Shown: positions 5,482 to 37,089, numbered from the stretch's first letter. The stretch is DNA of 51,349 nt from an uncultured Halobacteriales archaeon (GCA_964569925.1 CAZMWG010000001.1:1-51349); one strand, 5' to 3'. Numbers and translations: made by a program. The notes: generated by a model not told the origin, from the sequence alone.

Positions 5482-5560
5482 GGTGCTCGTGGCGGACCGA
5501 GTCCGCCGTCCCCCCATCCACGCGGTGGTGGATTGCGCTCCGTTGGTTGAAACGCTACTC

Positions 5561-5598
5561 GAATAAATCTTTGGAACCATTATCAGAAATATAGTTCG
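5561..5598 (-). promoter_or_regulatory. AT-rich island, candidate TATA/BRE promoter of the GH5 gene 3478..5481
   Basis: The minus strand reads cgaactatatttctgataatggttccaaagatttattc, in an otherwise ~70% GC context, 80-115 nt upstream of ATG 5481. Confidence 0.4.
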
Positions 5599-5745
5599 TG
5601 TCCGACCGCCGCGTCGCTCCGCGGGCCGACCGGTCGGCGTTCCCGACGGGGACCCGTCGTCCCGCCGTCCCCGTCGCCGGACCGTCGACGGTCCCCCGCC
5701 CGACGTCCCGGGTCGCCCCGACGCGGACGTCGGGGGGAACGGCGC

Positions 5746-7467: not shown

Positions 7468-7549
7468 GGTCTCCCGTCCGGGCGTGACACGCCTTCCCCC
7501 GTGGACGTGTGATAGGCTCCCGGACGTCTATCGTTACGCTATCGAACGC

Positions 7550-7566
7550 GAGAAATAAAACGTTAC
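7550..7566 (-). promoter_or_regulatory. AT-rich box, candidate promoter of the GH5 gene 5746..7467
   Basis: The minus strand reads gtaacgttttatttctc, about 85-100 nt upstream of ATG 7467. Confidence 0.35.
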
Positions 7567-7639
7567 CGACCGACGACGGCTCCCGGCCGCCGTCGCCGAC
7601 GCCCACCCGGATCGGTGACGCGGGCCGGGGTCCCTGCGG

Positions 7640-10048: not shown

Positions 10049-10110
10049 GTTCCCCCCCGCGTCCCGTCCGGCCGACGCGACGCCCGCACTCCGTGATGTT
10101 TGGGTCCAGA

Positions 10111-10134
10111 GAACGTAAATATTTCCCGGAAAAC
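10111..10134 (-). promoter_or_regulatory. AT-rich box, candidate promoter of the GH5-CBM6 gene
   Basis: The minus strand reads gttttccgggaaatatttacgttc, about 65-85 nt upstream of ATG 10048. Confidence 0.35.
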
Positions 10135-10171
10135 GGCGATACGAAGTCGGCGAGCGCCGAGTGCGGCGCGG

Positions 10172-14098: not shown

Positions 14099-14121
14099 AC
14101 GGTCGTTCCACGGACCGTGTT

Positions 14122-14141
14122 CTGAAATAATTTTCCGTAAG
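14122..14141 (-). promoter_or_regulatory. AT-rich box, candidate TATA element of the GH9 gene (near-leaderless spacing)
   Basis: The minus strand reads cttacggaaaattatttcag, centred about 32 nt upstream of ATG 14098. Confidence 0.45.
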
Positions 14142-14149
14142 AGACGGCG

Positions 14150-14167
14150 AAAAAAACCCGCCGGCGG
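14150..14167 (-). terminator. GC palindrome followed by a T7 run immediately after the mannanase-type gene stop
   Basis: The minus strand after TGA reads ccgccggcggg ttttttt. Oligo-T tracts are the usual archaeal termination signal. Confidence 0.5.
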
Positions 14168-15853
14168 TCAGTCCACGTCCTCGAACAGGTCGACCAGGTC
14201 GGTGTAGTCGATCCGGCCGTTGTCGTCGTAGTCGTAGGCCGCGACGTGGTCGGTCATGACCGGATCCTCCATCCGCTGGAAGTAGGTGACCACGTCGTCG
14301 TAGTCCGTTCGTCCGTTCCCGTTGAAGTCCTCGTAGTGGCCGTCGCCGTCGACGTCTCCCGGGACGGTCCCGTCGATCGGCGCGGGCCCGGCGTCGTCCT
14401 CCTCCGCCGGGGCGGTCGTCGCCGTCACGGTCGCGGCCGGCGACCGGCTCCCGCCCTCGGCGGTGGCCACGACGCCGATGCTGTAGTCGGTGTCCGGGTC
14501 GAGGTCGCCGACGGTCATCGACCGGACGCCCGCCGGGGCCGGGGCGCTCCGCGCCCCGATCTCGACGACGTGGCCCGCGACCGACCCGCTCGCCTCCCAG
14601 CGGACGGTCAGGCTCTCGGCCGTCCGGTCGACGACCCGCAGGTCCGACGGCGCCGCCGGGGTCGACCCGCCCGATCCCGGGTCGCCGTCGCCGCCGGACT
14701 TCTCGGCGGCGCGCTCGGTGTCGGCCTCGATCTCGGCGATCGTCGGCTCGTCGTCGAGGTGGACGGAGAAGCCGTCGTGGTTGCCACGCTTCTCCTGGAC
14801 GATCTCCCACAGCATCGCCGCGCTCGCGTCGCCCTCGTCCAGCGCGTCGTACCACGTCGCGTACGTCTCCGCGCGTTCGGGGTACTCGCCCGTGCCGCTC
14901 ACGTGGACGCCGAACTCCCCACAGTAGGCCGGCTTGCCCACCTCCTCGCGGGCGTCCCGGAGGTGCTCGCGGATCCACTCGGTCCCCCACTCGTGGGACT
15001 GGTTCCAGTGGTGGGGGTAGAGGTGGAACGTGCAGGCGTCGATCGTGTCGATCGCGTGCTGGTCGACGTACGCCGTCCCCTGTGAGCCGTCGTACGTCCA
15101 GCCGCTCTCGCCCTCCTTCCCGTCGTAGAACCCCTCCATCCCCGTCGAGACGAGGTGGTTCGAGTCGTACTCCTTGACGAGCGCCGACATCTCCTCGATC
15201 CACCCCGTCAGCGCCGCCACGCCGGCGTTCTCGACCCGGGGTTCGTTGGCGAGTTCCCACACCGCCACCGTCGGCTCCTCGCGGTACTCCCGCCCGGTGA
15301 GCGTGTTCTCCCGCGTCAGCACGTACTCGACGAACTCCCGGTACATCCGCCGGGTCTCGGCGTCCGTGTAGAAGTCGTCGTGGCTCGAGGCGGTGTCGGA
15401 CCACCGCACGTACTGGTCCATCCCGCCGTAGGCGCCCCAGTTGTCGGTGAACGGGATCACCAGCCTGATCCCGTGCTCGGCGGCCCGCTGGATCACGTAG
15501 TCGAAGTGTTCGAAGCCGGCCTCGTCGAACTCGCCCTTCGAGGGCTGCAGGCAGTGAGCGCCCCGCTGGCTGTTGCCCGAACACCACCCCCACGTCCGGA
15601 CGACGTCGAGGCCGACCCGCTCGGCCAACTCGAAGAACGCGTCGACCGCCCCCCGGTCGCGCCACGGGTCCTGTATCCAGAAGTTGTTCGTCCCGCTGAA
15701 GTAGCGGCGCTCGCCGTCGACGGTGAACTCCGTCCCGTCCCGCCGGACGAACGACGTCGGTCGCGCGGTCGCCGCCCCGGTCGCGCCGGCGCCGACGACC
15801 CCGGCGAGTCCCGCCGCCACGCCGCTTCTCAGCACGTCGCGTCGTGTGTGCAT
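14168..15853 (-). CDS. secreted GH5 beta-mannanase-type hydrolase - FN3 - dockerin-like module
   Basis: Tat motif TRRDVLRSG. FVRRDGTEFTVDGERRYFSGTNNFW and WELANEPR are typical of GH5 mannan endo-1,4-beta-mannosidases; nucleophile region is AYCGEFG. One FN3-like segment. C-terminus DVDGDGHYEDFNGNGRTDYDDVVTYF...YDYDDNGRIDYTDLVDLF. I preferred ATG 15853 over 15880 because the AT-rich box at 15887-15903 lies too close to 15880. Confidence 0.85.
   Translation of the reverse strand: MHTRRDVLRSGVAAGLAGVVGAGATGAATARPTSFVRRDGTEFTVDGERRYFSGTNNFWIQDPWRDRGAVDAFFELAERVGLDVVRTWGWCSGNSQRGAHCLQPSKGEFDEAGFEHFDYVIQRAAEHGIRLVIPFTDNWGAYGGMDQYVRWSDTASSHDDFYTDAETRRMYREFVEYVLTRENTLTGREYREEPTVAVWELANEPRVENAGVAALTGWIEEMSALVKEYDSNHLVSTGMEGFYDGKEGESGWTYDGSQGTAYVDQHAIDTIDACTFHLYPHHWNQSHEWGTEWIREHLRDAREEVGKPAYCGEFGVHVSGTGEYPERAETYATWYDALDEGDASAAMLWEIVQEKRGNHDGFSVHLDDEPTIAEIEADTERAAEKSGGDGDPGSGGSTPAAPSDLRVVDRTAESLTVRWEASGSVAGHVVEIGARSAPAPAGVRSMTVGDLDPDTDYSIGVVATAEGGSRSPAATVTATTAPAEEDDAGPAPIDGTVPGDVDGDGHYEDFNGNGRTDYDDVVTYFQRMEDPVMTDHVAAYDYDDNGRIDYTDLVDLFEDVD
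14171..14356 (-). repeat. dockerin-like module coding segment (copy 5 of 9)
   Basis: DVDGDGHYEDFNGNGRTDYDDVVTYFQRMEDPVMTDHVAAYDYDDNGRIDYTDLVDLFEDVD. Confidence 0.85.
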
Positions 15854-15886
15854 TCTCTGTCCCCCGACGATAGTTGCCATCTGAGA

Positions 15887-15903
15887 GTAGATAAAATAAA
15901 CTG
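15887..15903 (-). promoter_or_regulatory. AT-rich box, candidate TATA element of the mannanase-type gene
   Basis: The minus strand reads cagtttattttatctac, about 35-50 nt upstream of ATG 15853. Confidence 0.45.
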
Positions 15904-15961
15904 TCGGGGTGCGGATAGATGAGCCGGGATCACGTCCGACCCTCGCCCGTCGGTCGACCGA

Positions 15962-17707
15962 TCAGTTCGTCTCCCGGAAGAGATCGACCAGGTCGGTGTA
16001 GTCCAGGCGACCGTTGTCGTTGTAGTCGTAGGCGGCCGTGTGGTCGGTCATCGCCGGTTCCTCCATGTTCTGGAAGTAGGTGACCACGTCGTCGTAGTCC
16101 GTGTTCCCGTTGCCGTTGAGGTCCTCGTAGTAGCCGTCGCCGTCCGGGTCGGTCGGCGTCGCGCCGTCGATCGGACCCGGCGCGTCGGTCCCGCCCCCGC
16201 CGGTCCCCGTCGCGGTGACGGTGACCGTGGTGGTGCCGTCCGAGTCCTCCAGCGAGACCCGCTCCGTGACGATGCCGGCACCCGTCGAGACGGTGATCTC
16301 GTGTTCCCCGAGGAAGGCGCTGGTGGCGTAGGTGCCCGACGAGTCGGTCGTCCCGGACTCCTCGGTCCACCACTCGTCGTACACCAGCCCGGTCCAGACG
16401 TCGTAGCCGGGCTTCTTCTCGAAGTCACTGTCGAACAGCGGCGAGTGGGGCGGCGACCAGTGGAGGTCGTCCCAGAAGCCCCACATGAGGAACTGCTCGA
16501 CCGCGGGGTGGCTGAACGTCGTCTTCAGGAACTTCCGGAAGTACTCCGCCTTCGCCCGCTCGTCGAGCAACTGCTGGGAGCTCTGCGCGAAGTCGAACTC
16601 CGTGATCCGGATGCCGGTGTCGGGGACGGCCTCGGCGAAGTGGTTCAGATCGGCCATCAGCCGCTCCGGCGGGAGTCGCCGGTCCTCGCCGTTCGTGACC
16701 TTCATGTGGGACTGCATTCCCATCCCGGCGAGGTCGACGCCGCTGTCCTGGATGTGCTGTGCCCAGTTGGGGAACCAGGTCTTGGCGAAGTCGTACTCCG
16801 CGGTGAGCACGTTGAAGTCGTTGATCGCCAGCCCGACGTCGTCGGGCGCGACCTCGTCGGCCTTCTGGTACCAGTCGGCCATGATCGGCGACTTCCAGGG
16901 GACGACTTCTCCCTGCCAGAGCTTCTCCCGGTTGATCCGGTCGCCGTACACCCCGGTCTGGATCCAGTTGGCCCCGTCGTCTCCGGCCATCGCCTCGTTG
17001 ACGACCTCCCACTCCATGATGTCGTCGCCGTAGTGGGAGATGATGTCCTCGATGTGTTGCATCGACCGCTCCCGGATCGTCTCGGCGTCCCGGTCGTCGA
17101 TCGCCCGGTTGACGTCCTGCGGGATCGCGCCGACGTCACGGCGCCCCCAGATGCAGACGTGGCCCCGCACGTCGAAGCCGTTCTCCAGCAGCCGCTCCGT
17201 CGCCGCGTCCGCCCGCTCCTGGTCGCGCTCCCAGAACGCCCACTTGTGGGCGTTCTCCAGCACCGCGGTGTTGAACAGGTCGTTCGTGACCCGGCGGTAC
17301 TTGTCCCGGACCGCGTTCGACACCTGGTTGCCGTTCTTGTCCTCGCCCCGCACGTACATGTCGGCGTTGACGGCGGTCCCGAAGTGGAAGTCGTGTTCCT
17401 GCATCGAGACCGACACCTGCGCGTCCGGGATCGCCCGCCCGGACCCGTCCTCGACGACGACCTCCAGGTCGCCCATACGGTGGTCCTCGATGCGGCTGTC
17501 GGCGGCGGCCTCCCAGCCGCCGCCGTCGGACTGTGCCGCCGCCCGTCCGGTGGACATCCCCCGGACGAGGCCGGCGACCCCCAGCGCGCCCGTCGCGCGC
17601 AGCAGGTCCCGCCGGCCGACACGGCCGTCGACGACCCCAGCCGGCAGGTGGTCGGATCCGTCGTTCGATGTCTGTTCCTCGATCGTCGGGTCGGTGTCGC
17701 GTGTCAT
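15962..17707 (-). CDS. secreted GH10 xylanase-type hydrolase - small beta domain - dockerin-like module
   Basis: Tat motif GRRDLLRATG. GH10-like motifs LENAHKWAFWE, RGHVCIWG, WEVVNEAM (acid/base) and RITEFDF (nucleophile). C-terminus DPDGDGYYEDLNGNGNTDYDDVVTYF...YDYNDNGRLDYTDLVDLF. Confidence 0.85.
   Translation of the reverse strand: MTRDTDPTIEEQTSNDGSDHLPAGVVDGRVGRRDLLRATGALGVAGLVRGMSTGRAAAQSDGGGWEAAADSRIEDHRMGDLEVVVEDGSGRAIPDAQVSVSMQEHDFHFGTAVNADMYVRGEDKNGNQVSNAVRDKYRRVTNDLFNTAVLENAHKWAFWERDQERADAATERLLENGFDVRGHVCIWGRRDVGAIPQDVNRAIDDRDAETIRERSMQHIEDIISHYGDDIMEWEVVNEAMAGDDGANWIQTGVYGDRINREKLWQGEVVPWKSPIMADWYQKADEVAPDDVGLAINDFNVLTAEYDFAKTWFPNWAQHIQDSGVDLAGMGMQSHMKVTNGEDRRLPPERLMADLNHFAEAVPDTGIRITEFDFAQSSQQLLDERAKAEYFRKFLKTTFSHPAVEQFLMWGFWDDLHWSPPHSPLFDSDFEKKPGYDVWTGLVYDEWWTEESGTTDSSGTYATSAFLGEHEITVSTGAGIVTERVSLEDSDGTTTVTVTATGTGGGGTDAPGPIDGATPTDPDGDGYYEDLNGNGNTDYDDVVTYFQNMEEPAMTDHTAAYDYNDNGRLDYTDLVDLFRETN
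15965..16150 (-). repeat. dockerin-like module coding segment (copy 6 of 9)
   Basis: DPDGDGYYEDLNGNGNTDYDDVVTYFQNMEEPAMTDHTAAYDYNDNGRLDYTDLVDLFRETN. Confidence 0.85.
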
Positions 17708-17765
17708 CGTCGTGTTCCGTGTTGCGCTCCGCGCGTGCCGTCCGCTCTCTCGCCCCCGCGGGCGG

Positions 17766-19601
17766 TCAGTCCACGTCCTCGAACAGGTCGATCAGGTCGC
17801 CGTAGTCGACCCGACCGTTGTCGTTGTAGTCGTAGGCGGCCGCGTGGTCGGTCATCGTCGGCTCCTCCATGTGCCGGAAGTAGGTGACCACGTCGTCGTA
17901 GTCCACCTCGCCCGACCCGTTGAGGTCCTCGTAGTGGCCGTCGCCGTCGACGTCTCCCGGGACGGTCCCGTCGATCCGGGCGACCGTCGACGCCACCGAC
18001 AGGGTCGCGTCGGTCGTCGCCACCGCCATCTCGTCTCCCTCGTCGTCGTCGAGGCCCCGGACGGCGACGCTCACGTCGGTCTCGCCGGCCGACCGGCCCG
18101 CGAGGGTCACGGTCGCCAGCGGCACGTCCTGCGCGCCCGCCTGGACCGCCCGGGTGAGATCCGCCGTCTCGATGCTGGCCGACGCTCCCCCGACCTCGCC
18201 GTCCCCGTCGACGGCGTCGAGCCCCCCCGCGGGGTCGATCGACGCCACGGCCGCGACCGACGGGTCGGACACCCGGACGTCGAGCGCCGTCCCGGACACC
18301 CCCGCCGGCGCCTCGGACAGCACGACGGTCGCCGTCGTCTCGCCGCTCCGGTCGACCCCGTCGCTCGCCAGTTCGACCGCCACCGTCGACTCGTCGGCCT
18401 CGTCGCCGTCGGTGGCCGCGCCCGTCCGGGCGGCCGGGGACTCGTTGCCGGCACCGTCCACGGCCCGCACCGACACCCGGTAGCTCCGGCCGGCGGCCAG
18501 CCCGTCGACCGTCGCCCGGGTCCGGCCCGCCGGGACGGTCGTCTCCTCGCCGCCGGCCCGGACGACGTACCGCTCGACGCCGGTGCCGTCGTCCGTCGCG
18601 GCGTTCCACACCGCCTCGATCGACGACTCGGTGGCCGCGGGAACGCGCACGTTCGAGGGCGGCGTCGGTGCCGTCGCGTCCGGCGCCGCGCCGGCGCCCG
18701 ACTCCCCGCCGTCCGAGCCCCCGTCGACCTCGCTCTCGTAGGTCGTCCCGTTGACGGTGAGATCACACTGCCGGTAGGTGACCTCTCCCTGCGCGCCGGG
18801 CCAGTACTCGTTGCCCAACTCGATCCCGGTGAGCAGGAGGTCCTCGCGCACGCCGTGGCGTTCGGTCATGAACTCGATCACCTCCGCGAGGTCGACCGTT
18901 CCGGCGCTCATCCCGCCGCTCACGCGGAAGACGTGGAAGTCGGCGTCCGTCCCGCCGGTGATCGACTCCGCCCAGTAGTCGACCGTGTTGCCGAACCGGT
19001 CCGTCCAGACGTCCCGTTCGGCCGAACCGTGGCTGTGTCCGCCGCCCCAGTCCAGCAACAGCATGATCTCGTGGGTGATCGGCGGGCTCGACCCCGGTTC
19101 GCCGTCCAGCAGCCACCACTCCTCGGCCCAGTCCCACTCGCCGCCCGACACCGACAGGTCGGCGTCGACTTCCAGGACGAGTTCGTCGACGTCGCCCCGC
19201 CGGATCGGGAACTCGTCGGCCCCGCTGTGTCTCCCCCACGGCCGCGCACCGCAGAACACTTCGGGGTAGTTGATCTTGGGAGGCTCGTCGGGCCCCGACC
19301 GCGCGATCCCGGTGGCGTCGAACTCGTAGCCGAAACCGCCGTCGGCTCGCTCCCAGATACACTGCCGGGCCGGCTCCAGACTCCACTGGTTGTCCATCAG
19401 CGTCCACGTCTCGCCGACGTCGATGGTGCCACCCCCTGTGTCGCACTTCTCCGTGACCCGCTCGGCGGCCCCGAGACCGCTCGCGCCGAGTCCGAGCCCC
19501 GCGGCCCCTACGGCCGCGCCGGCGCGCAGGAACCGCCGTCGGGACGTTCCCCCCGACGCCGTGTCACCTGTCCGTTCCGTCCGTTCGTCGTCCTCTCTCA
19601 T
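17766..19601 (-). CDS. secreted GH12 endoglucanase-type hydrolase - FN3 - cohesin-like module - dockerin-like module
   Basis: Tat motif SRRRFLRAGAAVG. GH12-like pattern MDNQWS...HEIMLLLDW...GIELGNEYW. One FN3-like segment. Cohesin-like segment at about 17990-18390 (VAVELASDGVDRSGETTATVVLSEAPAGVSGTALDVRVSDPSVAAV...LATVTLAGRSAGETDVSVAVRGLDDDEGD). C-terminus DVDGDGHYEDLNGSGEVDYDDVVTYF...YDYNDNGRVDYGDLIDLF. Starts at ATG 19601. Confidence 0.8.
   Translation of the reverse strand: MREDDERTERTGDTASGGTSRRRFLRAGAAVGAAGLGLGASGLGAAERVTEKCDTGGGTIDVGETWTLMDNQWSLEPARQCIWERADGGFGYEFDATGIARSGPDEPPKINYPEVFCGARPWGRHSGADEFPIRRGDVDELVLEVDADLSVSGGEWDWAEEWWLLDGEPGSSPPITHEIMLLLDWGGGHSHGSAERDVWTDRFGNTVDYWAESITGGTDADFHVFRVSGGMSAGTVDLAEVIEFMTERHGVREDLLLTGIELGNEYWPGAQGEVTYRQCDLTVNGTTYESEVDGGSDGGESGAGAAPDATAPTPPSNVRVPAATESSIEAVWNAATDDGTGVERYVVRAGGEETTVPAGRTRATVDGLAAGRSYRVSVRAVDGAGNESPAARTGAATDGDEADESTVAVELASDGVDRSGETTATVVLSEAPAGVSGTALDVRVSDPSVAAVASIDPAGGLDAVDGDGEVGGASASIETADLTRAVQAGAQDVPLATVTLAGRSAGETDVSVAVRGLDDDEGDEMAVATTDATLSVASTVARIDGTVPGDVDGDGHYEDLNGSGEVDYDDVVTYFRHMEEPTMTDHAAAYDYNDNGRVDYGDLIDLFEDVD
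17769..17954 (-). repeat. dockerin-like module coding segment (copy 7 of 9)
   Basis: DVDGDGHYEDLNGSGEVDYDDVVTYFRHMEEPTMTDHAAAYDYNDNGRVDYGDLIDLFEDVD. Confidence 0.85.
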
Positions 19602-19651
19602 ACCTGAATCCCCCGTGTGCCGGTACGCGGTACTTGATTTCGCTTCCTCGC

Positions 19652-19688
19652 ACAAATATTATTCGATAAAAAACACGAAAGAATATGC
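19652..19688 (-). promoter_or_regulatory. AT-rich island: T-run terminator of the GH5 gene 19714..22203 plus candidate promoter of the GH12 gene
   Basis: The minus strand reads catattctttcgtgttttttatcgaataatatttgtg. It lies between the stop at 19714 and ATG 19601. Confidence 0.45.
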
Positions 19689-19713
19689 GCCGGACCGCGG
19701 CCGTCGTCGGCGG

Positions 19714-22203
19714 TTACTCGCTCGCTTCCTGGACTTCCTCGTACAGCGAGACGAGGTCGCTGAAGTCGATCCGGTCGTTGTCGTTGTAGTCGTAGGCGTC
19801 GACGTGGTCGGTCATCGCCGGCTCCTCCATGTAGTCGAAGTAGGTGACCACGTCGTCGTAGTCCAGGCTGCCGTTGCCGTTGAGGTCCTCGTAGTCGCCG
19901 TCGCCGTCCGGGTCCTCGGGGACCGCGCCGTCGATCTCGGTGAGGTCCGTCCCCTCCGGCGTGCCGACCGTCAGCATCGCCTCGGTCACCTGGACGTCGA
20001 TCGCCCCGGCGTTCCGGTCGTTCTCCATCCGCTGGACCGCCACGGCGACGCCGGTCTCGCCGGCTGACTGCCCGCGCAGCGTGACGCTACCGAGTTCGAC
20101 GTCGGTCGCGCCGGCCTGGACAGCCCCCCCCGAGTCGGCCGCCTCCAGCACGGCCGAGGAGCCGTCCGACGCAAGTTCGACCGGCCGAGTGAGCGAGTCG
20201 AGGTCGCCGTACATCCCGTTCTCGATGGTGGCGACGTCGGTGTCCTCGACGCTGACCTTGATCTTGTAGCCGCTCAGCCCGTTCGGCAGTTCGGACACCA
20301 TGATCGCCGCCCGGACCATCCCGCCGGGGGTCACCGTCTCGGTCTGTTGCTCGATCGACAGCGTCGGACCGCCGTCGCCGCCGGTCTCGCCGCCGTCGCC
20401 GCCCCCGCCGTCGTCGCCGCCCCCGCCGTCGTACGCGTCGGTGCTGGCCGACGCCATGACGGGGTCGGAGACGTTGCCGGCCTCGTCGACGGCCTGCAGC
20501 GTCATCTCGTAGTCGGTGTCCGGGTCGAGCCCCGACACCGTCGCCTCCGTTCCGGAGACGGTCTTCATCATCCCCTGGAACCCGATCTGGTAGCTGTCGA
20601 CGCCGCCGCCGACGTCGTCGGGGTCGGTGCTCGGCGACCACGACAGCGAGACGCTCGTCGCCGTCGTCCCGGTGACCGAGACGTTCGACGGCGCCGTCGG
20701 CGGCGTCCGGTCCTGCCGCGGGGTCGGGTTCCCGCCACCGCCGCCGGTGTCCTCACACTCGGACTCGGCGACCGGAAGGTCCTGGTCGGCCCGGGCCGCC
20801 AGGAACTCCTTGTACCAGCGGGCGTGGAACTCCTCGTAGGGCTGGAGGGTCTCGAAGTTCTGCCCCTGGAAGAACGCCGGCGACCAGGTGTGATCGAAAC
20901 ACCAGGCCCCCGGGTGGACATCGTAGTTGTTGAAGAACTGCTCGTACTCCGGGGCCTCCGTCTCGGTCGTGCCGTCGATGAACCCGAAGTCGTTGGCGCC
21001 CCCGCCCTCGGCCCAGCCGAACTCGTTGAAGAAGACGGGCGCCTGCTCGGCCGCCGGCCCGTAGTAGTCGCCCATCGGCGAGAGCGTGTCGTGGGTGTAC
21101 CGGTGGCCGTTGTAACACATGTTCGTGATGTCGCTGTAGGTCGACCCCACGTCCATGAGTTCCATCTCGCTGGCCCAGTAGGTGTACTGGCTCCAGCGGG
21201 GCGACCCCAGCGTCTTCACGCTGCCCGGCGCGTTCTCCTCGACGATCTTCACCCACGGCGCGGCCCGTTCGAGCCACAGCCGCCAGTAGGGCTTGGCCCG
21301 CTCGGAGAGGACGTCCGTGTCGTTGCCGGCCTCGTCGCCGCCGCCCGCCGGCGGCTCGTCCGGATGCCCCCAGTCGCCCGCGTACGGGCCCGTCGGCTCG
21401 TTGAAGACGTCGAAGATGATGTGGGGCTCGTCGGCGTACCGGTCCGCGACCGTCTCCCAGAACATCGTCAGCTCCGAGTCCAGTTCCTCGGCGTGGGTCT
21501 CGTACCAGGCGTCGTCGGGCGACCCCTCGAGGCCCTGGATCTCCGAGACCTGGTCCGCGCCGTGCCACAGCACGCCGCGCTCGCCACACATCCCCTGGTC
21601 GTACTGGAAGGTCTCGTTCTGACAGCGAGGCCACTGGCTCACCTCGTCGGCGTACTGGGGCTGGTGGAAGATGGGGAAGTGTCGGTGGTAGTCCAGCATC
21701 AGGTAGACGCCCCGCTCCTTGGACATCTCCACCAGCGGGTCGACGAACCGCTCCAGATACCGGGTCAGCTCCGACTCGTCGAACGACCCCGGCAGGATCG
21801 GTCCCCAGTTGTCCTGGTGTTTCATGTTCGTCGTCCGACCCGCCACCTCGGCGCTGATGTCCTGGGGCTGCATCGGCAGCCGCAGGTACGTGTTCGCCCA
21901 CTCCTCGCTCGTGGCCATCTCCAGCATCTCCTCGGCGGTCGCCCCGCGCCAGTTGCGCTGGGCCCGCGACGGGTCGATCAGGTTTACCCCCCGGAGGATA
22001 ACCTGGTTCCCGCAGGGGTCGACGAGCTCGTTCCCCTCGCGCTCGAGCTGGGGCGTCGGGATCCCGTCGGCGGCCGACGAGGCCGCGTTCCCGACGACCG
22101 ACGAGCCCAGCGCCAGCCCGGCGGTCGCCGCGCTGACCCCCTTCAGCACCGTCCGCCGTGTGGTCGTGTTCTGTGCCGTCCCGTGACTGTGTTCGTCCGT
22201 CAT
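19714..22203 (-). CDS. secreted GH5 endoglucanase-type hydrolase - FN3 - cohesin-like module - dockerin-like module
   Basis: Tat motif TRRTVLKGVSAATAG. GH5 motifs IIFDVFNEP and VFFNEFGW. One FN3-like segment. Cohesin-like segment at about 19965-20370 (LSIEQQTETVTPGGMVRAAIMVSELPNGLSGYKIKVSVEDTDVATI...LGSVTLRGQSAGETGVAVAVQRMENDRN). C-terminus DPDGDGDYEDLNGNGSLDYDDVVTYF...YDYNDNDRIDFSDLVSLY. Starts at ATG 22203. Confidence 0.9.
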   Translation of the reverse strand: MTDEHSHGTAQNTTTRRTVLKGVSAATAGLALGSSVVGNAASSAADGIPTPQLEREGNELVDPCGNQVILRGVNLIDPSRAQRNWRGATAEEMLEMATSEEWANTYLRLPMQPQDISAEVAGRTTNMKHQDNWGPILPGSFDESELTRYLERFVDPLVEMSKERGVYLMLDYHRHFPIFHQPQYADEVSQWPRCQNETFQYDQGMCGERGVLWHGADQVSEIQGLEGSPDDAWYETHAEELDSELTMFWETVADRYADEPHIIFDVFNEPTGPYAGDWGHPDEPPAGGGDEAGNDTDVLSERAKPYWRLWLERAAPWVKIVEENAPGSVKTLGSPRWSQYTYWASEMELMDVGSTYSDITNMCYNGHRYTHDTLSPMGDYYGPAAEQAPVFFNEFGWAEGGGANDFGFIDGTTETEAPEYEQFFNNYDVHPGAWCFDHTWSPAFFQGQNFETLQPYEEFHARWYKEFLAARADQDLPVAESECEDTGGGGGNPTPRQDRTPPTAPSNVSVTGTTATSVSLSWSPSTDPDDVGGGVDSYQIGFQGMMKTVSGTEATVSGLDPDTDYEMTLQAVDEAGNVSDPVMASASTDAYDGGGGDDGGGGDGGETGGDGGPTLSIEQQTETVTPGGMVRAAIMVSELPNGLSGYKIKVSVEDTDVATIENGMYGDLDSLTRPVELASDGSSAVLEAADSGGAVQAGATDVELGSVTLRGQSAGETGVAVAVQRMENDRNAGAIDVQVTEAMLTVGTPEGTDLTEIDGAVPEDPDGDGDYEDLNGNGSLDYDDVVTYFDYMEEPAMTDHVDAYDYNDNDRIDFSDLVSLYEEVQEASE
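19717..19914 (-). repeat. dockerin-like module coding segment (copy 8 of 9)
   Basis: DPDGDGDYEDLNGNGSLDYDDVVTYFDYMEEPAMTDHVDAYDYNDNDRIDFSDLVSLYEEVQEASE. Confidence 0.85.
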
Positions 22204-22331
22204 CGTGTGTTCGTGTGGACTGTCCGACCGGTCGGACCCCCCTCCCGGTCCGCGCGTCCTCGCGCTCGTTCGTCGCACTGTACCCCCCACCGGACCCGAG
22301 CCACGACGGCCCGGGTCCGACGCCTCCGGAC

Positions 22332-25300
22332 CTACCCCGACATCTCCTCGAACAGCGAGACCACGTCGGCCAGATCCAGGCCGCCGTTGCCGTTGAAGTC
22401 GTAGGCCTCCGGGTGGGACGTGATCGCCTCGTCGTCGCGCTCGTAGTAGTACTGGATCACGTCCGTGAACTCCACCTCCCCGTTGGCGTTGAGGTCCTCG
22501 TACAGCCCGTCGTCGTCGATGTCCTGGGGCGTGATCCCGTTGATCGGCGAGACGCCGCCGGTGTCCGTCTCCTCGGTCACCGACAGGACCGCGGTCACGT
22601 CGCCGACCGACATCGGGTTGCCGTCGTCGTCGTCGAACTTGCCCGTCGACAACACGAGCTCCGTGCTGCCGGTCGACTCGGCGTCGAGCGTGACCGTCGC
22701 CAGCGTCACGTCGGCGGCGCCGGGCTGGACCTCCTGGCCGAGGTCGGTCCCGTTCATCGACACCGAGCCGCCGTCGTCGGCCACGCTCGCGCCGCCGATC
22801 ATCCCCCCGCTGCCGAAGGCGCTGGTGACGCCCGCGTCCGTGATCGTCGCCACCGCCGGGTCGGCGACCTCGAGGGTGGCGTTGAACCCGGAGATGCCCG
22901 TCGGCGCCGACGGCAACAGGATCGTCGCCTCGACGGTCCCGCCGGGCGCGGCCTCGGCGGGCGACAGCGCTAGGTCGACGCCCTCGCCGTCGACGCCGCC
23001 GCCGACCGTCCCGTCGTCGTCGCCGGGCTCGCCGTCGTCGGAGCCGTCGTCGGCGTCGTCCTCGTCACCGCCGGAGTCGCCCCCGACGACGAGGGTCGTC
23101 GTCGTCTCCCCCGGCGACGTCAGCCCGCCGTCGTCGTCGGTGAGCCGGTCGACCGACAGCGAGAGGTCGACGTCGCCCTCGCTCTCGCCGGCCAGCGTGA
23201 CCGTCGCCAGCGTGACGTCCGTGGCGCCGGGCTGGACCGCTCCGCCGAAGTCGATGCCCGTCGCCGTCATCGAACCCTCGCCCACGTCGGCGCCGCCGGC
23301 CGGCCCCTGGAACCTCTCGAGCAGCCCGCCGTCCGCGATCGTCGCGATCGACGTGTCCGAGACCTCGAACGCGAGGTCGAAGCCGGCCACCCCCTCCGGG
23401 GCGGCGCCCAGCACCAGTTCCGCGTCGACGGTCCCGCCGGCGGGGACGTCGTCGGCCTCGAGGTCGACCGAGAGGTCGCCGTCGCCGGCGTCGTCCTCGT
23501 CGTCGGAGCCGTCGCCCGTGCCGTCGCCGGCGTCGCCCTCGCCGCCCTCCGTCTCGACGGAGAGCGGGGCGCTCGCGCTCGTCGACATCCGGCTCCCGTC
23601 GCCCATGTCGACGTTCGCCTCGACGGAGACGTCCGCCTCGCCGGCGGCCTCGCCGACGAGGGTCACCGTCCCCAGGTCGACGTCCACGGCGTCCGGCTGG
23701 ACGGCGTTGTTGACGTCGCCGCCACGCAGCGTCGCCGTGGCGCCGTCGCCGCTCACGGTCGCCGAAGTCGGCTGGAACGACCCCGGGATCGTCGCCGAGT
23801 CGACGGTGACGACGTCCGTGTCGCTCACGGTCAGGTCGAGGTAGAAGCCGGTCATGTTCCCGGCCATCGACGGGAGTGTGATCGTCGCCGCGACCTCCTC
23901 GCCCGGCGCGACCGTGTCCGAGGCCAAGTCCAGCGAGACGCCCGAACCGTCCCCGGTCCCGTCGTCGCCGCCGCCGGCGTCGTCCTCACCCTCGTCGCCG
24001 GCGCCGCCGTCACCGACGACGAGCGTCGACGAGCCGCTCGCCGACGCCTGGCTCCCGTCGGCCAGGTCCATACTGCCCGCCGCGGACACCGACGCTTCGC
24101 CCTCGCCCTCGACGGTCATGGTGACCGTCGCCAGCGTGACGTCCGTGGCGCCGGCGGGGACGTCGTCGTTGACGTCGCCGCCGCGGAAGGAGGCGAAGGC
24201 ACCGCCGTCGGCGACGGAACTCTCGGCGAACCGGAACCAGTCGGCGGTCTCGATCCCGGTGATCGTCGCCACCGACGTGTCGTCGATCGAGACCTCGACG
24301 TCGAAGCCGGTCGGGTTCCCGGCGATCGACGGGAGGACGACCGTCGCCTCCACCTCGTCGCCGGGTTCGGCACCCGACGGGAGGTCGACGACGAGTCCGT
24401 CGCTCGCGGTGCCGTCCTCCCCGTCGTCGGAGCCGTCGTCGCCGGAACCGTCGTCGACGCCGCCGTCACCGACGACGATCGTCGACGAGCCGCTCGCCGA
24501 GACCCGACCGCCGTCGGCCAGGTCCATGCCACCGGTCGCCGTCAGGGAAGCTTCCCCCTCGCCCTCGACGGCCAGCGTGACCGTCGCGAGCGGCACGTCG
24601 GTGGCGCCGGCGGGGACGTCGTCGTTGACGTCGCCGCCGCGGAAGGAGGCGGAACCCCCGTTGTCGGCGACGGAACTCTCGGCGAACCGGAACCAGTCGG
24701 CGGTCTCGATCCCGGTGATCGTCGCCACCGACGTGTCGTCGATCGAGACCTCGACGTCGAAGCCGGTCGGGTCCCCGGCGATCGACGGGAGGGTGATCGT
24801 CGCCTCCACCTCGTCGCCGGGCTCGGCTCCGGACGGCAGCCCGACCGCCAGCCCGTCGCTCGCGGTGCCGTCCTCCCCGTCGCCGGCGCCGCCGTCACCG
24901 ACGACGATCGTCGACGAGCCGCTCGCCGACGCCTGGCTCCCGTCGGCCAGGTCCATACTGCCCGCCGCGGACACCGACGCTTCGCCCTCGCCCTCGACGG
25001 TCATGGTGACCGTCGCCAGCGTGACGTCCGTGGCGCCGGCGGGGACGTCGTCGTTGACGTCGCCGCCGCGGAAGGAGGCGAAGGCACCGCCGTCGGCGAC
25101 GGAACTCTCGGCGAACCGGAACCAGTCGGCGGTCTCGATCCCGGTGATCGTCGCCACCGACGTGTCGTCGATCGAGACCTCGACGTCGAAGCCGGTCGGG
25201 TTCCCGGCGATCGACGGGAGGACGACCGTCGCCTCCACCTCGTCGCCGGGTTCTGCACTCGACGGGAGGTCGACGACGAGCCCGTCGCTCGCGGTGCCGT

Positions 25301-26687
25301 CCTCCCCGTCGTCGGAGCCGTCGTCGCCGGAGCCGCCGTCGTCGGTCGCGACGGCCAGCGTGGCGCTCGCGCTCATCGAACTCCTGGCACCGTCCGCCGT
25401 GTCGACGTCGCCGGCGGCCGACACCGCGGTCTCGCCCTCGCCCTCGCCGGCCAGGGTGACCGTCGCCACCGTGACGTCCGTGGCGCCGGCGTCGACGGCG
25501 TTGTCGACGTCGCCGCCCCGGATCGACACCGAGGAGCCGTCGGCGCTCACGCTGCTGGCGCTGGGCTTGAGCAGTTCCGACGGCGTCGCGTCCGCGATCG
25601 TTGCCACCGACGGGTCCTCGACGGTCACCGTGGCGTCCATGCCGGTCATGTCGCCCGACACCTCCGGCACGACCAGCCGCGCCTGGACCTCCTCTCCGGG
25701 CGCGACCGTGTCGGCTGGCACCTCGAAGCTCGCCGACAGCCCCTCGTCGGAGCCGGCGGCGATGGTCGCCGTCGCCGTCGCGGCGGCCGACTGGTTGCCG
25801 GCGCCGTCGACGGCCGTCACGGCGACGTCGTACGTCGTCCCCGCAGACAGGCCGTCGACCGTCGCCTCGGTGGTGTCGCCGCCGACGTTCATCGCGGTGT
25901 CCCCGACCTCGACGATGTAGTGGTCGACGCCGGTCCCCTCGTCGGTCGACGCGGACCAGGAGAGCGTGACGCTCGACTCGGTCGTGCCGGTCGCCGCGAG
26001 GTTGCCCGGCGTCGACGGGCCACTGGTGTCCTCGCCGGGATCCGGCGTCGGCTCGGGCGCCCCGGAGCCGCCGCCGGCCGACCCGGCGGCAAACCGCATC
26101 TCGTCGATCTCGACGGCACCCGAGCCGTTCGCTCCCTCCCAGAAGTTGAACCGCACCGACGGCAGCGACGACCAGTCGGCGTCGACCGCCGACAGCGGCA
26201 CCGAGACCGTCGAGAAGGAGGTGCCGATCGACCCGTCCGCGACGTCCCCGAACGTCTCGACGACGCCGCCGAGCTTGATCGCGAAGTGGCTCCCCTCGCC
26301 GCCCTCGTCGCCCCGGATCACGAACTCCAGGCGCTCGTAGTCGGAGACGTCACGCCCGACGTTGCTGCCGAACCAGCCGGCGTTGTCGTACTCCAGGCGC
26401 AACGCGCCGTCGACGACCTCGCCGTTGCCGCCGCCGTTGGCGAAGCCGCCCGCGTCCGCCCAGTTACCGATGTCGTTCCCCTCCGGCCACGCCGGGTCGC
26501 CGTCGTAGTCGTTGACGAGCAGCCCCTGCGCGGACTCCTGTGCCGCCACCGTTCCGGCGCCCGCGGCGAGCAGTCCCGTTCCGGCGGCCGCGGCCTGCAT
26601 GAACGTCCGCCTCGAGGCGTCGTACCCGCCGTCGACCCCTGACGTGGTCCGATCTGTCGGTTCTGTGTTCCCTGTGTCGTTGGTCAT
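22332..26687 (-). CDS. scaffoldin-like protein: Tat signal - CBM-like beta-sandwich domain - FN3 - seven cohesin-like modules joined by acidic linkers - divergent C-terminal dockerin-like module
   Basis: Tat motif SRRTFMQAAAAGTG, starting at ATG 26687. Seven ~130-aa modules share the pattern [LV]..[DE]L......PG..V.A.[IV].LP.....G[FM]......V.D..VATI ... GATDV.LATVT[LM]...EGE. They sit at about 25345-25745, 24905-25290, 24475-24860, 24020-24405, 23555-23940, 23085-23475 and 22580-22980. C-terminus DIDDDGLYEDLNANGEVEFTDVIQYY...YDFNGNGGLDLADVVSLF. Confidence 0.85.
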   Translation of the reverse strand: MTNDTGNTEPTDRTTSGVDGGYDASRRTFMQAAAAGTGLLAAGAGTVAAQESAQGLLVNDYDGDPAWPEGNDIGNWADAGGFANGGGNGEVVDGALRLEYDNAGWFGSNVGRDVSDYERLEFVIRGDEGGEGSHFAIKLGGVVETFGDVADGSIGTSFSTVSVPLSAVDADWSSLPSVRFNFWEGANGSGAVEIDEMRFAAGSAGGGSGAPEPTPDPGEDTSGPSTPGNLAATGTTESSVTLSWSASTDEGTGVDHYIVEVGDTAMNVGGDTTEATVDGLSAGTTYDVAVTAVDGAGNQSAAATATATIAAGSDEGLSASFEVPADTVAPGEEVQARLVVPEVSGDMTGMDATVTVEDPSVATIADATPSELLKPSASSVSADGSSVSIRGGDVDNAVDAGATDVTVATVTLAGEGEGETAVSAAGDVDTADGARSSMSASATLAVATDDGGSGDDGSDDGEDGTASDGLVVDLPSSAEPGDEVEATVVLPSIAGNPTGFDVEVSIDDTSVATITGIETADWFRFAESSVADGGAFASFRGGDVNDDVPAGATDVTLATVTMTVEGEGEASVSAAGSMDLADGSQASASGSSTIVVGDGGAGDGEDGTASDGLAVGLPSGAEPGDEVEATITLPSIAGDPTGFDVEVSIDDTSVATITGIETADWFRFAESSVADNGGSASFRGGDVNDDVPAGATDVPLATVTLAVEGEGEASLTATGGMDLADGGRVSASGSSTIVVGDGGVDDGSGDDGSDDGEDGTASDGLVVDLPSGAEPGDEVEATVVLPSIAGNPTGFDVEVSIDDTSVATITGIETADWFRFAESSVADGGAFASFRGGDVNDDVPAGATDVTLATVTMTVEGEGEASVSAAGSMDLADGSQASASGSSTLVVGDGGAGDEGEDDAGGGDDGTGDGSGVSLDLASDTVAPGEEVAATITLPSMAGNMTGFYLDLTVSDTDVVTVDSATIPGSFQPTSATVSGDGATATLRGGDVNNAVQPDAVDVDLGTVTLVGEAAGEADVSVEANVDMGDGSRMSTSASAPLSVETEGGEGDAGDGTGDGSDDEDDAGDGDLSVDLEADDVPAGGTVDAELVLGAAPEGVAGFDLAFEVSDTSIATIADGGLLERFQGPAGGADVGEGSMTATGIDFGGAVQPGATDVTLATVTLAGESEGDVDLSLSVDRLTDDDGGLTSPGETTTTLVVGGDSGGDEDDADDGSDDGEPGDDDGTVGGGVDGEGVDLALSPAEAAPGGTVEATILLPSAPTGISGFNATLEVADPAVATITDAGVTSAFGSGGMIGGASVADDGGSVSMNGTDLGQEVQPGAADVTLATVTLDAESTGSTELVLSTGKFDDDDGNPMSVGDVTAVLSVTEETDTGGVSPINGITPQDIDDDGLYEDLNANGEVEFTDVIQYYYERDDEAITSHPEAYDFNGNGGLDLADVVSLFEEMSG
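22335..22523 (-). repeat. dockerin-like module coding segment (copy 9 of 9, scaffoldin-borne, most divergent)
   Basis: DIDDDGLYEDLNANGEVEFTDVIQYYYERDDEAITSHPEAYDFNGNGGLDLADVVSLFEEMSG. Confidence 0.8.
22580..25745 (-). other. array of seven cohesin-like modules within the scaffoldin gene
   Basis: Seven ~130-aa units separated by D/G/S/E-rich linkers. Approximate boundaries are given under the scaffoldin CDS. Confidence 0.8.
24001..25340 (-). repeat. three tandem ~430-450 bp repeats encoding scaffoldin cohesin modules 2-4
   Basis: 24001-24455 matches 24886-25340 at an offset of 885 bp. Within that, 24024-24368 and 24909-25253 are identical over 345 bp. The middle copy (about 24475-24880) is diverged by roughly 10%. 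Confidence 0.95.
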
Positions 26688-26746
26688 TCTTCCCCCCCAG
26701 CGTGCGTCTCCGCACTGAGGTACCCACATCGTTCGTGGTGTCCATA

Positions 26747-26783
26747 CCATAAAAAAATAGCGGTAGATAGTGAAATATAATCG
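26747..26783 (-). promoter_or_regulatory. AT-rich island: T7 run downstream of the anchor gene plus candidate promoter of the scaffoldin gene
   Basis: The minus strand reads gattatatttcactatctaccgctatttttttatgg, 60-95 nt upstream of ATG 26687. Confidence 0.45.
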
Positions 26784-26816
26784 GTTCGGCGGTCGACGGT
26801 CGGCCGGCGTCCCGGG

Positions 26817-27470
26817 CTACAGGATCTCGCGCAGGCCGACGCCCGCGAGCACGACGACCCCGAGCAACACCGTCGCGATCGCCATCGTCGCGACCAGCCC
26901 CGGCGTGCCGGAGCCACCCGGGGACCCGGAGCCGTTCGCCGACTCCGTCCCGTCCGCCGATCCACCCGCCGACCCGCCCGCCGTGGGGTTCCCGACCACG
27001 AGGGACCCGTTCCGGACCGACCGGGCCGCCGACTCGCCGACGTCGTTGTCCAGTTCGACCGTCGACGCCTCCAGCGAGACGACCGACTCGGTGTCTCCCC
27101 GGACGGTGACGGTCCCCAGGGTCACCGCCCCGGTCCCGTTTCCGACCGTGTCGTTGAGGTCGATCCCCCTGAGGTAGATCCGTCGGTCGTCGACGACCCG
27201 TACGTTCGTCAGCAGCATCTCGTCGTTGACCGATCCGCCGACGATCGTCGCGTTCGGCCCGACGGCGACGCTCAGGTTGTACCCCGCCAGCCCGTTCGGC
27301 GCCTCCGTGAGGGTCACCGTCACCGTCGTCTCCCCGCCCACCGGCACCTCGCCGTCGCCGACTTCGAGCGTCGGCCCGTCCTGTGCGACCGCCGCCGTCC
27401 CCGCCCCCGCCGCGGCGACCGCCAGCACGGCCGCCACCGCCCCGATCGTCGCCCCGCGAACGCTGTGCAT
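26817..27470 (-). CDS. cell-surface anchored single-cohesin protein: signal peptide - cohesin-like module - G/S-rich stalk - PGF-CTERM-like transmembrane anchor
   Basis: The N-terminal signal MHSVRGATIGAVAAVLAVAAAGAGTAAVAQ has no twin arginine. The cohesin-like body reads LEVGDGEVPVGGETTVTVTLTEAPNGLAGYNLSVAVGPNATIV...GAVTLGTVTVRGDTESVVSLEASTVELDNDVGE. The C-terminus GSGSPGGSGTPGLVATMAIATVLLGVVVLAGVGLREIL resembles the archaeosortase PGF-CTERM signal, with PGL in place of PGF. Confidence 0.8.
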   Translation of the reverse strand: MHSVRGATIGAVAAVLAVAAAGAGTAAVAQDGPTLEVGDGEVPVGGETTVTVTLTEAPNGLAGYNLSVAVGPNATIVGGSVNDEMLLTNVRVVDDRRIYLRGIDLNDTVGNGTGAVTLGTVTVRGDTESVVSLEASTVELDNDVGESAARSVRNGSLVVGNPTAGGSAGGSADGTESANGSGSPGGSGTPGLVATMAIATVLLGVVVLAGVGLREIL

Positions 27471-28632: not shown

Positions 28633-28793
28633 CCCGACGGCCCGTCGCCGTCGGACCGCGCTTCGACCGTCGACGGACGCCGCCGTCGGTTCCGTGGCCG
28701 GAGGCCACGCCATCTGCCCCGTGGCCGGGAGCCACGCCGCCGTCCCCCGCCGGAGGGGACGACCCTTTGTCCGTGCACCTCGTCGTCGGGGTG

Positions 28794-30092: not shown

Positions 30093-30149
30093 AGCCGTGT
30101 AGTCGCGCCGCGTCGAGATAAACCCGCGTGAGCGCCGGGGCCCGGTCGC

Positions 30150-36817: not shown

Positions 36818-37089
36818 AGCACCCCTCCGCGCTCGACGGCGTACCGGGCCAGCCCCAGCGACAGCGAGAAGTTCAACAGCGCGTACACGATCGCCACGTC
36901 CAGCAGTCCCGGCTCGTCGAGCCCGACCGACAGCAGGACGAGCACGGTGACCGTCGCGGTGCCGACCCCGTTGACCGCCACGACGCGGTCCGGGAGGGTC
37001 GGGCCGACGACCACACGCCCGAAGCACAGTGCCGCCAGCACCACCACCGCCAGCGCGGCGCCGACCAGGGCGTCGTCGACGCCGATCAC
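36814..37089 (-). CDS. mrpF: Mrp antiporter subunit F
   Basis: The 91-aa C-terminal part of ORF 36814..38103 reads GPTLPDRVVAVNGVGTATVTVLVLL...LDVAIVYALLNFSLSLGLARY, the MnhF pattern. The GTG at 37087-37089 overlaps the mrpE stop. Confidence 0.8.
   Translation of the reverse strand: MIGVDDALVGAALAVVVLAALCFGRVVVGPTLPDRVVAVNGVGTATVTVLVLLSVGLDEPGLLDVAIVYALLNFSLSLGLARYAVERGGVL

Follow-up and report, generated by a model that had tools for sequence, protein, structure and literature searches.

A candidate primary scaffoldin with seven divergent cohesin modules in a cellulase gene cluster of an uncultured haloarchaeon

The textbook cellulosome is a machine of anaerobic Firmicutes, and anaerobic fungi have an analogous system; to our knowledge, cellulosomes have so far been described only in anaerobic bacteria and fungi, and the cohesins and dockerins of archaea are regarded as 'non-cellulosomal'. 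The question raised by the locus analysed here is whether a protein made largely of repeated modules, encoded beside a series of glycoside hydrolase (GH) genes in an uncultured Halobacteriales archaeon, could be the scaffoldin of such a complex. Its open reading frame (ORF; 22332..26750, minus strand, as are all the features of the scaffoldin and its cluster given below) lies in a stretch of 51,349 nucleotides (nt) (GCA_964569925.1 CAZMWG010000001.1:1-51349; hereafter the window), with a G+C content of about 72% and strongly acidic predicted proteins, whose nearest named relatives belong to Halorhabdus, Halococcoides and Halomicrobium, so that its source is a haloarchaeon. The original prediction, made from the sequence, was that of a non-catalytic scaffoldin candidate with seven cohesin-like modules in two sequence classes. 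We conclude, with a probability of about 0.75, that this ORF codes for a primary scaffoldin, on which a cellulosome-like complex of several enzymes would be organised at the cell surface of a haloarchaeon of the Halomicrobium / Haloarculaceae type. The seven predicted modules were borne out by a module-specific hidden Markov model (HMM), and in silico support for a scaffoldin is strong: it comes from the predicted fold, the dockerin-bearing neighbours, an adjacent single-cohesin membrane protein and syntenic relatives.

The ORF comprises 1472 amino acids from its first ATG to the stop codon at 22332-22334. There are three candidate starts (Met1, Met8 and Met22), the last of which, at 26687, gives exactly the 1451-residue protein first proposed; a 1422-residue gene call present in the database, with its start inside the twin-arginine motif, is probably too short. 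From the N-terminus, the protein consists of: a leader of the twin-arginine translocation (Tat) type; a domain of about 150 residues resembling carbohydrate-binding modules (CBM-like); an FN3 domain (25785..26015, residues 246-322; Pfam PF00041, E 1.7e-14); seven repeats of about 130 residues separated by linkers rich in D, G, S and E; and a 70-residue C-terminal dockerin, which the text of the original prediction did not list. The Tat-type signal region (26538..26687, residues 22-71) was read from the sequence: it contains the twin-arginine motif SRRTFMQAAAAG (residues 46-57, with SRRTFM at 46-51) followed by a hydrophobic stretch, and the Pfam TAT_signal model did not reach E 0.1 on the protein. 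The composition is extremely acidic (G 16%, D 12.6%, A 12.6%, K 0.2%; D and E together 19%). Searches of the whole protein with Pfam and NCBIfam retrieved no catalytic family, FN3 being the one domain recognised, and the accounting of domains leaves no stretch of catalytic-domain size, in agreement with the non-catalytic nature first attributed to it. The organisation of a primary scaffoldin, with several cohesins on one non-catalytic secreted polypeptide, was therefore found here as seven modules, no catalytic family and a twin-arginine motif.

The module HMM was built from the seven scaffoldin repeats and used to scan the window proteins and a six-frame translation of the whole window. Each of the seven repeats scored at E 1e-48 to 1e-60, and exactly four further modules were found (in the GH9 protein at 10172..14098, the protein at 17766..19655, the GH5 protein at 19714..22290 and the 217-residue anchor), confirming the 11 cohesin-like modules counted in the original prediction. 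At the DNA level, too, the repeat shows up, in seven copies with a spacing of 429-507 nt. Five modules, lacking an acidic turn, form class I: M1 (25347..25745, residues 336-468); M2 (24897..25286, residues 489-618), 98% identical to M4 at the amino acid level; M3 (24468..24857, residues 632-761), 85% identical to M2 and M4; M4 (24012..24401, residues 784-913); and M5 (23553..23945, residues 936-1066). The acidic turn is present in M6 (23082..23483, residues 1090-1223; DRLTDDDGG) and in M7 (22575..22985, residues 1256-1392; GKFDDDDGN), the latter directly abutting the dockerin.

The fold was modelled for M6 alone, with AlphaFold2 and the 11-module alignment as input, giving a nine-strand beta-sandwich with a predicted local distance difference test score (pLDDT) of 93.9. 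Cohesins made up 33 of the 35 top matches in a Foldseek search of the PDB with this model: the best was the cohesin of Clostridium perfringens GH84C (2jh2; E 1.2e-9, template modelling (TM) score 0.79), and others included those of Clostridium thermocellum OlpA and CipA (1ohz/1anu/1aoh), A. cellulolyticus, C. acetobutylicum and R. flavefaciens; the cohesin of the archaeon Archaeoglobus fulgidus (2xdh) was matched with a TM score of 0.72. The M6 model is, then, a cohesin jelly-roll and not a fold unrelated to cohesins. Modules M1 to M5 are 34-39% identical to M6, and their fold is assigned through this identity and the shared HMM. Sequence comparisons gave weak matches in the same direction: the 11-module profile retrieved from the PDB the cohesins of Ruminococcus flavefaciens 5m2o and 5aoz over the full length and 5lxv over the N-terminal 78 profile positions (E ~1e-3); hhalign aligned the N-terminal cohesin signature (strands 1-4) of the module profile with that of CipA Coh7 (E 0.006); and the Pfam Cohesin model matched M2 over its full length with 18 bits (E 0.0035), below the gathering cut-off of 24.1 bits. 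The same model gave no match to M6 alone and none to the whole scaffoldin at E<0.1 (PF00963), and other proteins retrieved by the module HMM exceed the cut-off, with 25.7 and 36.2 bits. Because the M6 model and its structural matches are accompanied by weak, consistent sequence matches, the scaffoldin repeats are predicted to have the cohesin fold and to be remote cohesin homologues, in a divergent branch found in archaea and largely overlooked by curated models. The recognition of FN3 alone by Pfam and NCBIfam is not evidence against cohesins, since structure and profile searches recover them.

The partners expected of a scaffoldin are encoded immediately downstream. Ten co-directional genes occupy 3478..27470 (24 kb), with gaps of 41-172 nt, in the transcription order anchor, scaffoldin and eight enzymes, and all eight proteins downstream of the scaffoldin bear a dockerin (five GH5, one GH9, one GH10 and one without a catalytic domain recognised by Pfam). 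In order, these are: GH5-FN3-cohesin-dockerin (gene 3, 19714..22290); an N-terminal domain without Pfam match followed by FN3-cohesin-dockerin (gene 4, 17766..19655); GH10-dockerin (gene 5, 15962..17707); GH5-FN3-dockerin (gene 6, 14168..15880); CelD_N-GH9, four DUF4397 repeats, cohesin and dockerin (gene 7, 10172..14098); GH5-CBM6-FN3-dockerin (gene 8, 7640..10048); GH5-FN3-dockerin (gene 9, 5746..7467); and GH5-dockerin (gene 10, 3478..5580), the last of the co-directional cluster. Three of the eight carry a cohesin of their own. The gene 4 enzyme had been labelled GH12, which Pfam did not reproduce: residues 1-330 matched nothing, even at E 1, and the sole match of the N-terminal domain was a weak one to PDB 7mks/7mkr (E 3e-5), deposited as 'Glycoside hydrolase, family 6'. 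In the gene 7 protein, the DUF4397 repeats (Pfam E 1.8e-74) lie between the GH9 catalytic domain and the cohesin.

The window encodes nine dockerins, all of them C-terminal and each with two D.N.NG..D...D loops; the repeats DLNGNGxxDYDDVVxYF and DYNxNGRIDYxDLxxLF were seen in all nine sequences, which is the organisation of type I dockerins (PF00404), with two EF-hand-like, loop-helix repeats of ~22 residues that bind Ca2+ in this family. Pfam Dockerin_1 scores range from 16.9 to 24.7 bits, on both sides of the 22.9 cut-off. Identity is 59-81% among the seven ordinary enzyme dockerins and 55-61% between these and the dockerin of the GH9 protein; that of the scaffoldin (22335..22550, residues ~1401-1472; Dockerin_1 E 1e-3) is a divergent subtype, with 37-49% identity to those of the enzymes. 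Differences extend to positions 10/11 of each repeat, which we take to be specificity positions, as in clostridial dockerins: the enzymes have mostly YD / YT, with variation in repeat 2 (LD in GH9, YG in 17766-19655, FS in 19714-22290), and the scaffoldin has FT and LA in its first and second repeats. The scaffoldin dockerin is 67% identical to that of a syntenic scaffoldin of Halomicrobium urmianum (described below), which is itself 45-50% identical to the dockerins of its own enzymes; the scaffoldin type therefore appears to be a conserved, separate lineage. This lineage is the best evidence obtained here for a second binding specificity, most simply that of the scaffoldin dockerin for the anchor cohesin.

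The anchor candidate is encoded directly upstream of the scaffoldin (26817..27470; 217 residues), and consists of a signal peptide, one cohesin (26991-27380), a G/S-rich linker and a C-terminal transmembrane helix. The membrane helix is certain; the processing of the protein by an archaeosortase is not. Small proteins homologous to it are widespread in haloarchaea, and one of them is labelled as a PGF-CTERM protein with a Pfam Cohesin domain. Candidate features for attachment are a divergent scaffoldin dockerin, kept in the orthologue, and an adjacent single-cohesin protein with a C-terminal transmembrane helix; from these we infer that the scaffoldin dockerin probably binds the anchor cohesin. 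An AT-rich TATA-like element, TTATATTT (26773-26780), is present inside the 66-nt gap between both genes (26751-26816, minus strand), with its centre about 26 nt upstream of the first scaffoldin ATG (26750); a transcript of the scaffoldin's own, possibly leaderless, would fit this element.

The CBM-like domain of the scaffoldin (26076..26537, residues 72-225) is a predicted beta-sandwich. Pfam gave CBM_11 alone, at E 0.21, and a profile search of the PDB gave no meaningful match. The leading Foldseek PDB matches of the AlphaFold2 model are all CBMs (CBM29, CBM4, CBM11 and CBM30; E 7e-5 to 1e-3, TM scores 0.5-0.6), the best being CBM29 (TM score ~0.6, E 7e-5). A word-indexed homologue search retrieved one match; the homologues of the domain are found in a protein of a Halococcoides metagenome-assembled genome, in two copies in one Halorhabdus GH5 cellulase and in both of the other scaffoldins considered below. 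The label 'CBM-like' seems fair on this model.

A query with the whole scaffoldin found no close relatives in species-representative genomes; an exhaustive profile search retrieved 1891 representative proteins at E <= 1e-3. Proteins with at least five modules are rare, and two unannotated examples are encoded among the cellulase genes of two species in culture, Halomicrobium urmianum and Halomontanus rarus. Both share with the window the module family, the CBM-like domain and the order of anchor, scaffoldin and dockerin-bearing enzymes. The H. urmianum protein (WP_225333374.1, annotated as 'beta strand repeat-containing protein') has a CBM-like domain, five cohesins and a dockerin, and its locus is syntenic with the window (anchor, scaffoldin, GH5-FN3-cohesin-dockerin, GH5-dockerin); it differs in the number of modules, all with the acidic turn, and in having two enzymes downstream. 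The Halomontanus rarus TS33 protein (CP119796.1, L079:10001-16420) differs more, since it is catalytic: an N-terminal GH5 domain is followed by eight non-acidic cohesins and a C-terminal CBM-like domain, without a dockerin. Its gene is followed by that of a PGF-CTERM single-cohesin protein, among genes for dockerin-bearing GH5, GH5-mannanase and GH10 enzymes. Two- and three-cohesin proteins were also observed beside dockerin-bearing proteins of 1400-2300 residues in Haloarcula rubra (L073:7931-14900), Haloferax prahovense (L075) and Salinirubellus litoreus (L076), where the cohesin turn is different (GTE[AD]G, GDEDN).

The association of both domains extends well beyond cellulases. A genome scan seeded on dockerins gave 187 confirmed loci, nearly all in Halobacteria and Methanomicrobia, and a cohesin module was found within 10 kb at 38 of the 78 loci seeded only on a dockerin. 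A recurrent arrangement in haloarchaea is a gene pair in which a PhoX alkaline phosphatase of about 900 residues, with a cohesin-dockerin tandem, is immediately followed by a single-cohesin membrane protein of about 270 residues (L012:7457-10992, L018:7457-11029, L025:7526-10961, L003:6746-10979 and about 20 more, in many genera); the Haloarchaeobius version has a nuclease in place of PhoX. Because exoenzymes with the tandem recur beside single-cohesin membrane proteins, the anchor role proposed in the window is supported, and the distribution suggests that the cohesin-dockerin pair is a general device of haloarchaea for holding exoenzymes at the cell surface.

These data bear on the possibility that no complex exists at all. 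In that case the repeats would be Ig-like spacers in a glycoprotein that is secreted or associated with the S-layer, and the 'dockerins' would be tails by which free enzymes bind Ca2+ or substrate. Experiments on the archaeon A. fulgidus have demonstrated binding between cohesin and dockerin, which counts against this; moreover, the fold of the modules is specifically that of a cohesin, the best matches not being generic Ig domains, and the genetic linkage of dockerin and cohesin module is tight throughout Halobacteria and Methanomicrobia. What speaks for free enzymes is that Pfam makes no cohesin call on the modules, and that the published descriptions of related clusters follow this line: Sorokin et al. 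2024 (PMC10963439), on Natronoglomus, list a gene pair as 'GH5/CBM6, 1755 aa' and 'S-layer glycoprotein, 258 aa', evidently homologous to the scaffoldin/anchor type of pair, and state that the dockerin participates in substrate binding, which PMC13260240 repeats. Cohesins are never mentioned in these two papers, nor in PMC10267330, a comparative genomics study of haloarchaeal cellulose metabolism that mentions neither cohesin nor dockerin, so that the cohesin alternative was not weighed in any of the three. Taken together, we consider a spacer protein surrounded by free enzymes very unlikely.

In the complex that we propose, the enzyme dockerins would dock, with Ca2+, on the seven scaffoldin cohesins; the divergent dockerin of the scaffoldin would dock on the anchor cohesin, tethering the complex to the membrane; the CBM-like module would keep the complex on beta-glucan; and the cohesins carried by three of the enzymes would allow branching or enzyme-on-enzyme stacking. 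Several points weigh against this scheme. The case is drawn from sequence, predicted structure and gene context. No scaffoldin module reaches the curated Pfam threshold for cohesins. Binding of carbohydrate by the CBM-like module is only suggested, because its model is of low confidence (pLDDT 62). The anchor ends in ...GTPGLVATMAIATVLLGVVVLAGVGLREIL, with PGL instead of the PGF of PGF-CTERM proteins, and NCBIfam gave no match on it and hence no PGF-CTERM call; its Halomontanus homologue has the canonical MPGFGV... tail. The Halomontanus scaffoldin lacks a dockerin, so the hierarchy of scaffoldin dockerin and anchor cohesin is not universal. The view of the dockerin as a substrate-binding domain was published for related clusters (PMC10963439). 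Finally, cohesins that abut a dockerin might support that dockerin instead of receiving one.

This last point follows from the geometry of the tandem. Among 35 archaeal ORFs with both a cohesin and a dockerin, the cohesin ends no more than 10 residues before the dockerin in 31, and the same tandem is present in the window in the C-terminal part of the scaffoldin (M7 with its dockerin, 22335-22985) and in three enzymes. The fixed tandem could serve for head-to-tail chaining or have an X-module-like role, the latter being brought to mind by the near-zero linker. If so, the dockerin-adjacent modules (M7 and those of the GH9, GH5 and so-called GH12 proteins) would be rigid dockerin supports, like the X-module of type II X-dockerins, and binding would be left to the free-standing modules and the anchor; the conservation of the tandem on exoenzymes as unrelated as PhoX and the nuclease fits such a role. 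Against this stands their ordinary place in the module family: they are 33-41% identical to M6, with the same motifs and the same acidic turn as the anchor cohesins, the module of the so-called GH12 protein groups with the H. urmianum scaffoldin modules (100% bootstrap), and no sign of degeneration is seen in any of them. We therefore judge a purely supporting role of the dockerin-adjacent modules to be unlikely.

We next consider the two module classes, which the original prediction had interpreted as two binding specificities on one scaffold, class I (M1-M5) and class II (M6, M7 and the enzyme-borne modules) serving two sets of dockerin partners. The sequence basis of the classes is sound. 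All the motifs quoted in support of them are present: M1 to M5 share RGGDV[ND][ND]..V..GATDV.LATVT and the C-terminal end [VM]D[TLM][AG]DG, and acidic turns are found in M6, M7, the GH9 protein (TRFDDDDGG), the 17766..19655 protein (RGLDDDEGD) and the anchor (VELDNDVGE). The aligned modules also split in a tree, with M1-M5 as a clade (84.5% bootstrap) that contains an M2/M3/M4 group (100% bootstrap). M6 and M7 fall outside this clade and are equally close to the enzyme-borne modules and to M1-M5; 'class II' is a grade and not a clade. The differences specific to M1-M5 are few and mostly in loops: Gly17 changed to D/E; Pro29 and Gly31 altered; Arg at position 75, in strand 6; N/D at position 80; and, at the strand 8-9 hairpin, one residue missing from the end of strand 8, a turn in which DD is replaced by [TLM][AG], and one residue missing from the start of strand 9.

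It is the location of this turn that favours a functional difference. The DDDG residues form the beta8-beta9 turn in the M6 model, and both strand order and distance from the C-terminus put the GGFANNDL motif of CipA cohesins, whose sequence was checked, at the corresponding place, which makes the earlier positional argument reasonable; the residues of this motif, ANNDL included, presumably contact the dockerin in the 1OHZ complex. The claim that the acidic turn occupies the position of the clostridial turn (quoted then as GGFADNDL) stands on these two measures and did not receive residue-level support, because hhalign aligned the N-terminal half only (strands 1-4). The presence of more than one dockerin subtype in the cluster (enzyme type, GH9 variant and scaffoldin type) would also agree with two sets of partners.

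The comparison between genomes points the other way. Across haloarchaea, anchors and tandem or enzyme-borne modules alike have the acidic turn, D[DA][DE][DGN]G, as the family default; the orthologous H. urmianum scaffoldin has acidic-turn modules only, and the Halomontanus scaffoldin and its anchor have non-acidic modules only, so either state of the turn can be that of a general receptor. The window protein is the only one of these three scaffoldins in which both turn types occur, and in the tree the modules of different genomes group by protein, not by turn class. No feature of the dockerins was found to track the class split in the comparisons within the window, with H. urmianum and among PhoX-anchor pairs, and the covariation of the cohesin turn with dockerin residues gave no usable signal in the PhoX-anchor pairs or in the three cellulase clusters. 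A charge pairing between a dockerin Arg and the acidic turn was considered and dropped, as the enzyme dockerins of H. urmianum lack the Arg and its cohesins are acidic. On comparative grounds, two cohesin specificities are the less probable outcome, and a correspondence between the two module classes and two partner sets is, in our opinion, doubtful. The divergence between the enzyme dockerins and the scaffoldin's own dockerin appears to be the better-supported specificity split.

The identity of 85-98% among M2, M3 and M4 indicates simple amplification instead. The most economical reading is that M1-M5 are a recent, derived tandem amplification that has lost two acidic residues as well as a residue in strand 8, and that M6 and M7 keep the ancestral acidic turn, as found in the cohesin-dockerin tandem that archaeal exoenzymes commonly carry. 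The similarity reaches the DNA: M2 with its linker (24897-25345) and M4 with its linker (24012-24460) are 98.2% identical over 449 nt, with an exact run of 345 nt. This reflects either a very recent duplication or a spot at which assembly from short reads could get the module count wrong, so the copy number of seven could be sensitive to the assembly.

Some neighbouring genes outside the cluster deserve mention. A Ca2+/Na+ antiporter gene (28536-29723, plus strand; TIGR00367, E 3e-61) is present shortly upstream of the cluster, separated from the anchor gene by one unassigned ORF (27535-28632), and is followed by an Mrp-type cation antiporter operon (29611-38103). Dockerins require Ca2+, and a link between them and the Ca2+/Na+ antiporter is speculative. 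About 20 kb from the cluster, a regulator of the bacterio-opsin-activator type, with PAS/GAF/BAT/HTH_10 domains, is encoded on the plus strand (46933-50175), in keeping with the haloarchaeal source.

A complete cluster of anchor, scaffoldin and enzymes in a haloarchaeon, together with its syntenic versions in two cultured species, suggests that the cellulosome strategy is also used in Archaea, working at 3-5 M salt. The literature searched, which left most subscription journals outside its reach, contained no description of a haloarchaeal or archaeal cellulosome, nor of cohesin and dockerin in haloarchaea; the system would be an archaeal, halophilic cellulosome variant unrecognised by current annotation. 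If this is true, the reading of haloarchaeal cellulose and mannan degradation would change, including the published labels 'GH5/CBM6', 'S-layer glycoprotein' and 'substrate-binding dockerin', and salt-stable, orthogonal cohesin-dockerin pairs would become available for designer enzyme assemblies. The hypothesis is directly testable, given that cultured relatives with complete genomes exist. A stronger joint claim can be formulated, to which we give somewhat less than even odds: the first true archaeal cellulosome, aerobic and working at saturating salt; a cohesin family missed by standard annotation; three levels (membrane anchor, seven-site scaffoldin, enzymes); branching through the enzyme-borne cohesins; and at least two, possibly three, orthogonal specificities, one of them recent and derived from the M1-M5 amplification.

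Among known systems, the scaffoldin cohesins of R. flavefaciens (5m2o, 5aoz, 5lxv) are the best matches by sequence profile, at very low identity, and belong to a bacterial, anaerobic rumen system with sortase-linked anchoring. The best structural match is to the C. perfringens GH system (the GH84C cohesin, 2jh2 / 2w1n), which shares with the window enzyme-borne cohesins that permit enzyme-enzyme complexes; it differs in having neither a multi-cohesin scaffoldin nor a membrane anchor cohesin, and its enzymes act on host glycans, not on cellulose. Within Archaea, Peer et al. reportedly surveyed non-cellulosomal cohesin-dockerin proteins in 2009. The A. fulgidus-type proteins share the fold, the occurrence of both domains in one protein and the wide spread in Euryarchaeota; they have one or two modules, in proteins unrelated to polysaccharide breakdown, whereas in the window a seven-cohesin scaffold with a CBM-like domain lies in a cellulase/xylanase cluster.

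A parallel in organisation is provided by the clostridial primary scaffoldins, C. thermocellum CipA and C. cellulolyticum CipC, which are likewise non-catalytic, secreted proteins with a run of cohesins, and which have a CBM where the window protein has its CBM-like domain. CipA also shares a C-terminal dockerin of a type other than that of the enzyme dockerins, and the clostridial scaffoldin genes adjoin that of an anchoring cohesin protein, with dockerin-bearing GH5, GH9 and GH10 enzymes following, as in the cip-cel operon. The differences are the following: the window protein belongs to an archaeon living at saturating salt and is extremely acidic, with cohesins below the Pfam threshold; its CBM-like domain is not a CBM3, the nearest folds on the low-confidence model being CBM29, CBM4 and CBM11; the dockerin is preceded by an abutting cohesin instead of an X-module; export is by Tat; in place of SLH repeats, the proposed anchor has a C-terminal segment of the transmembrane or PGF-CTERM type; and three of the enzymes in the window bear a cohesin of their own.

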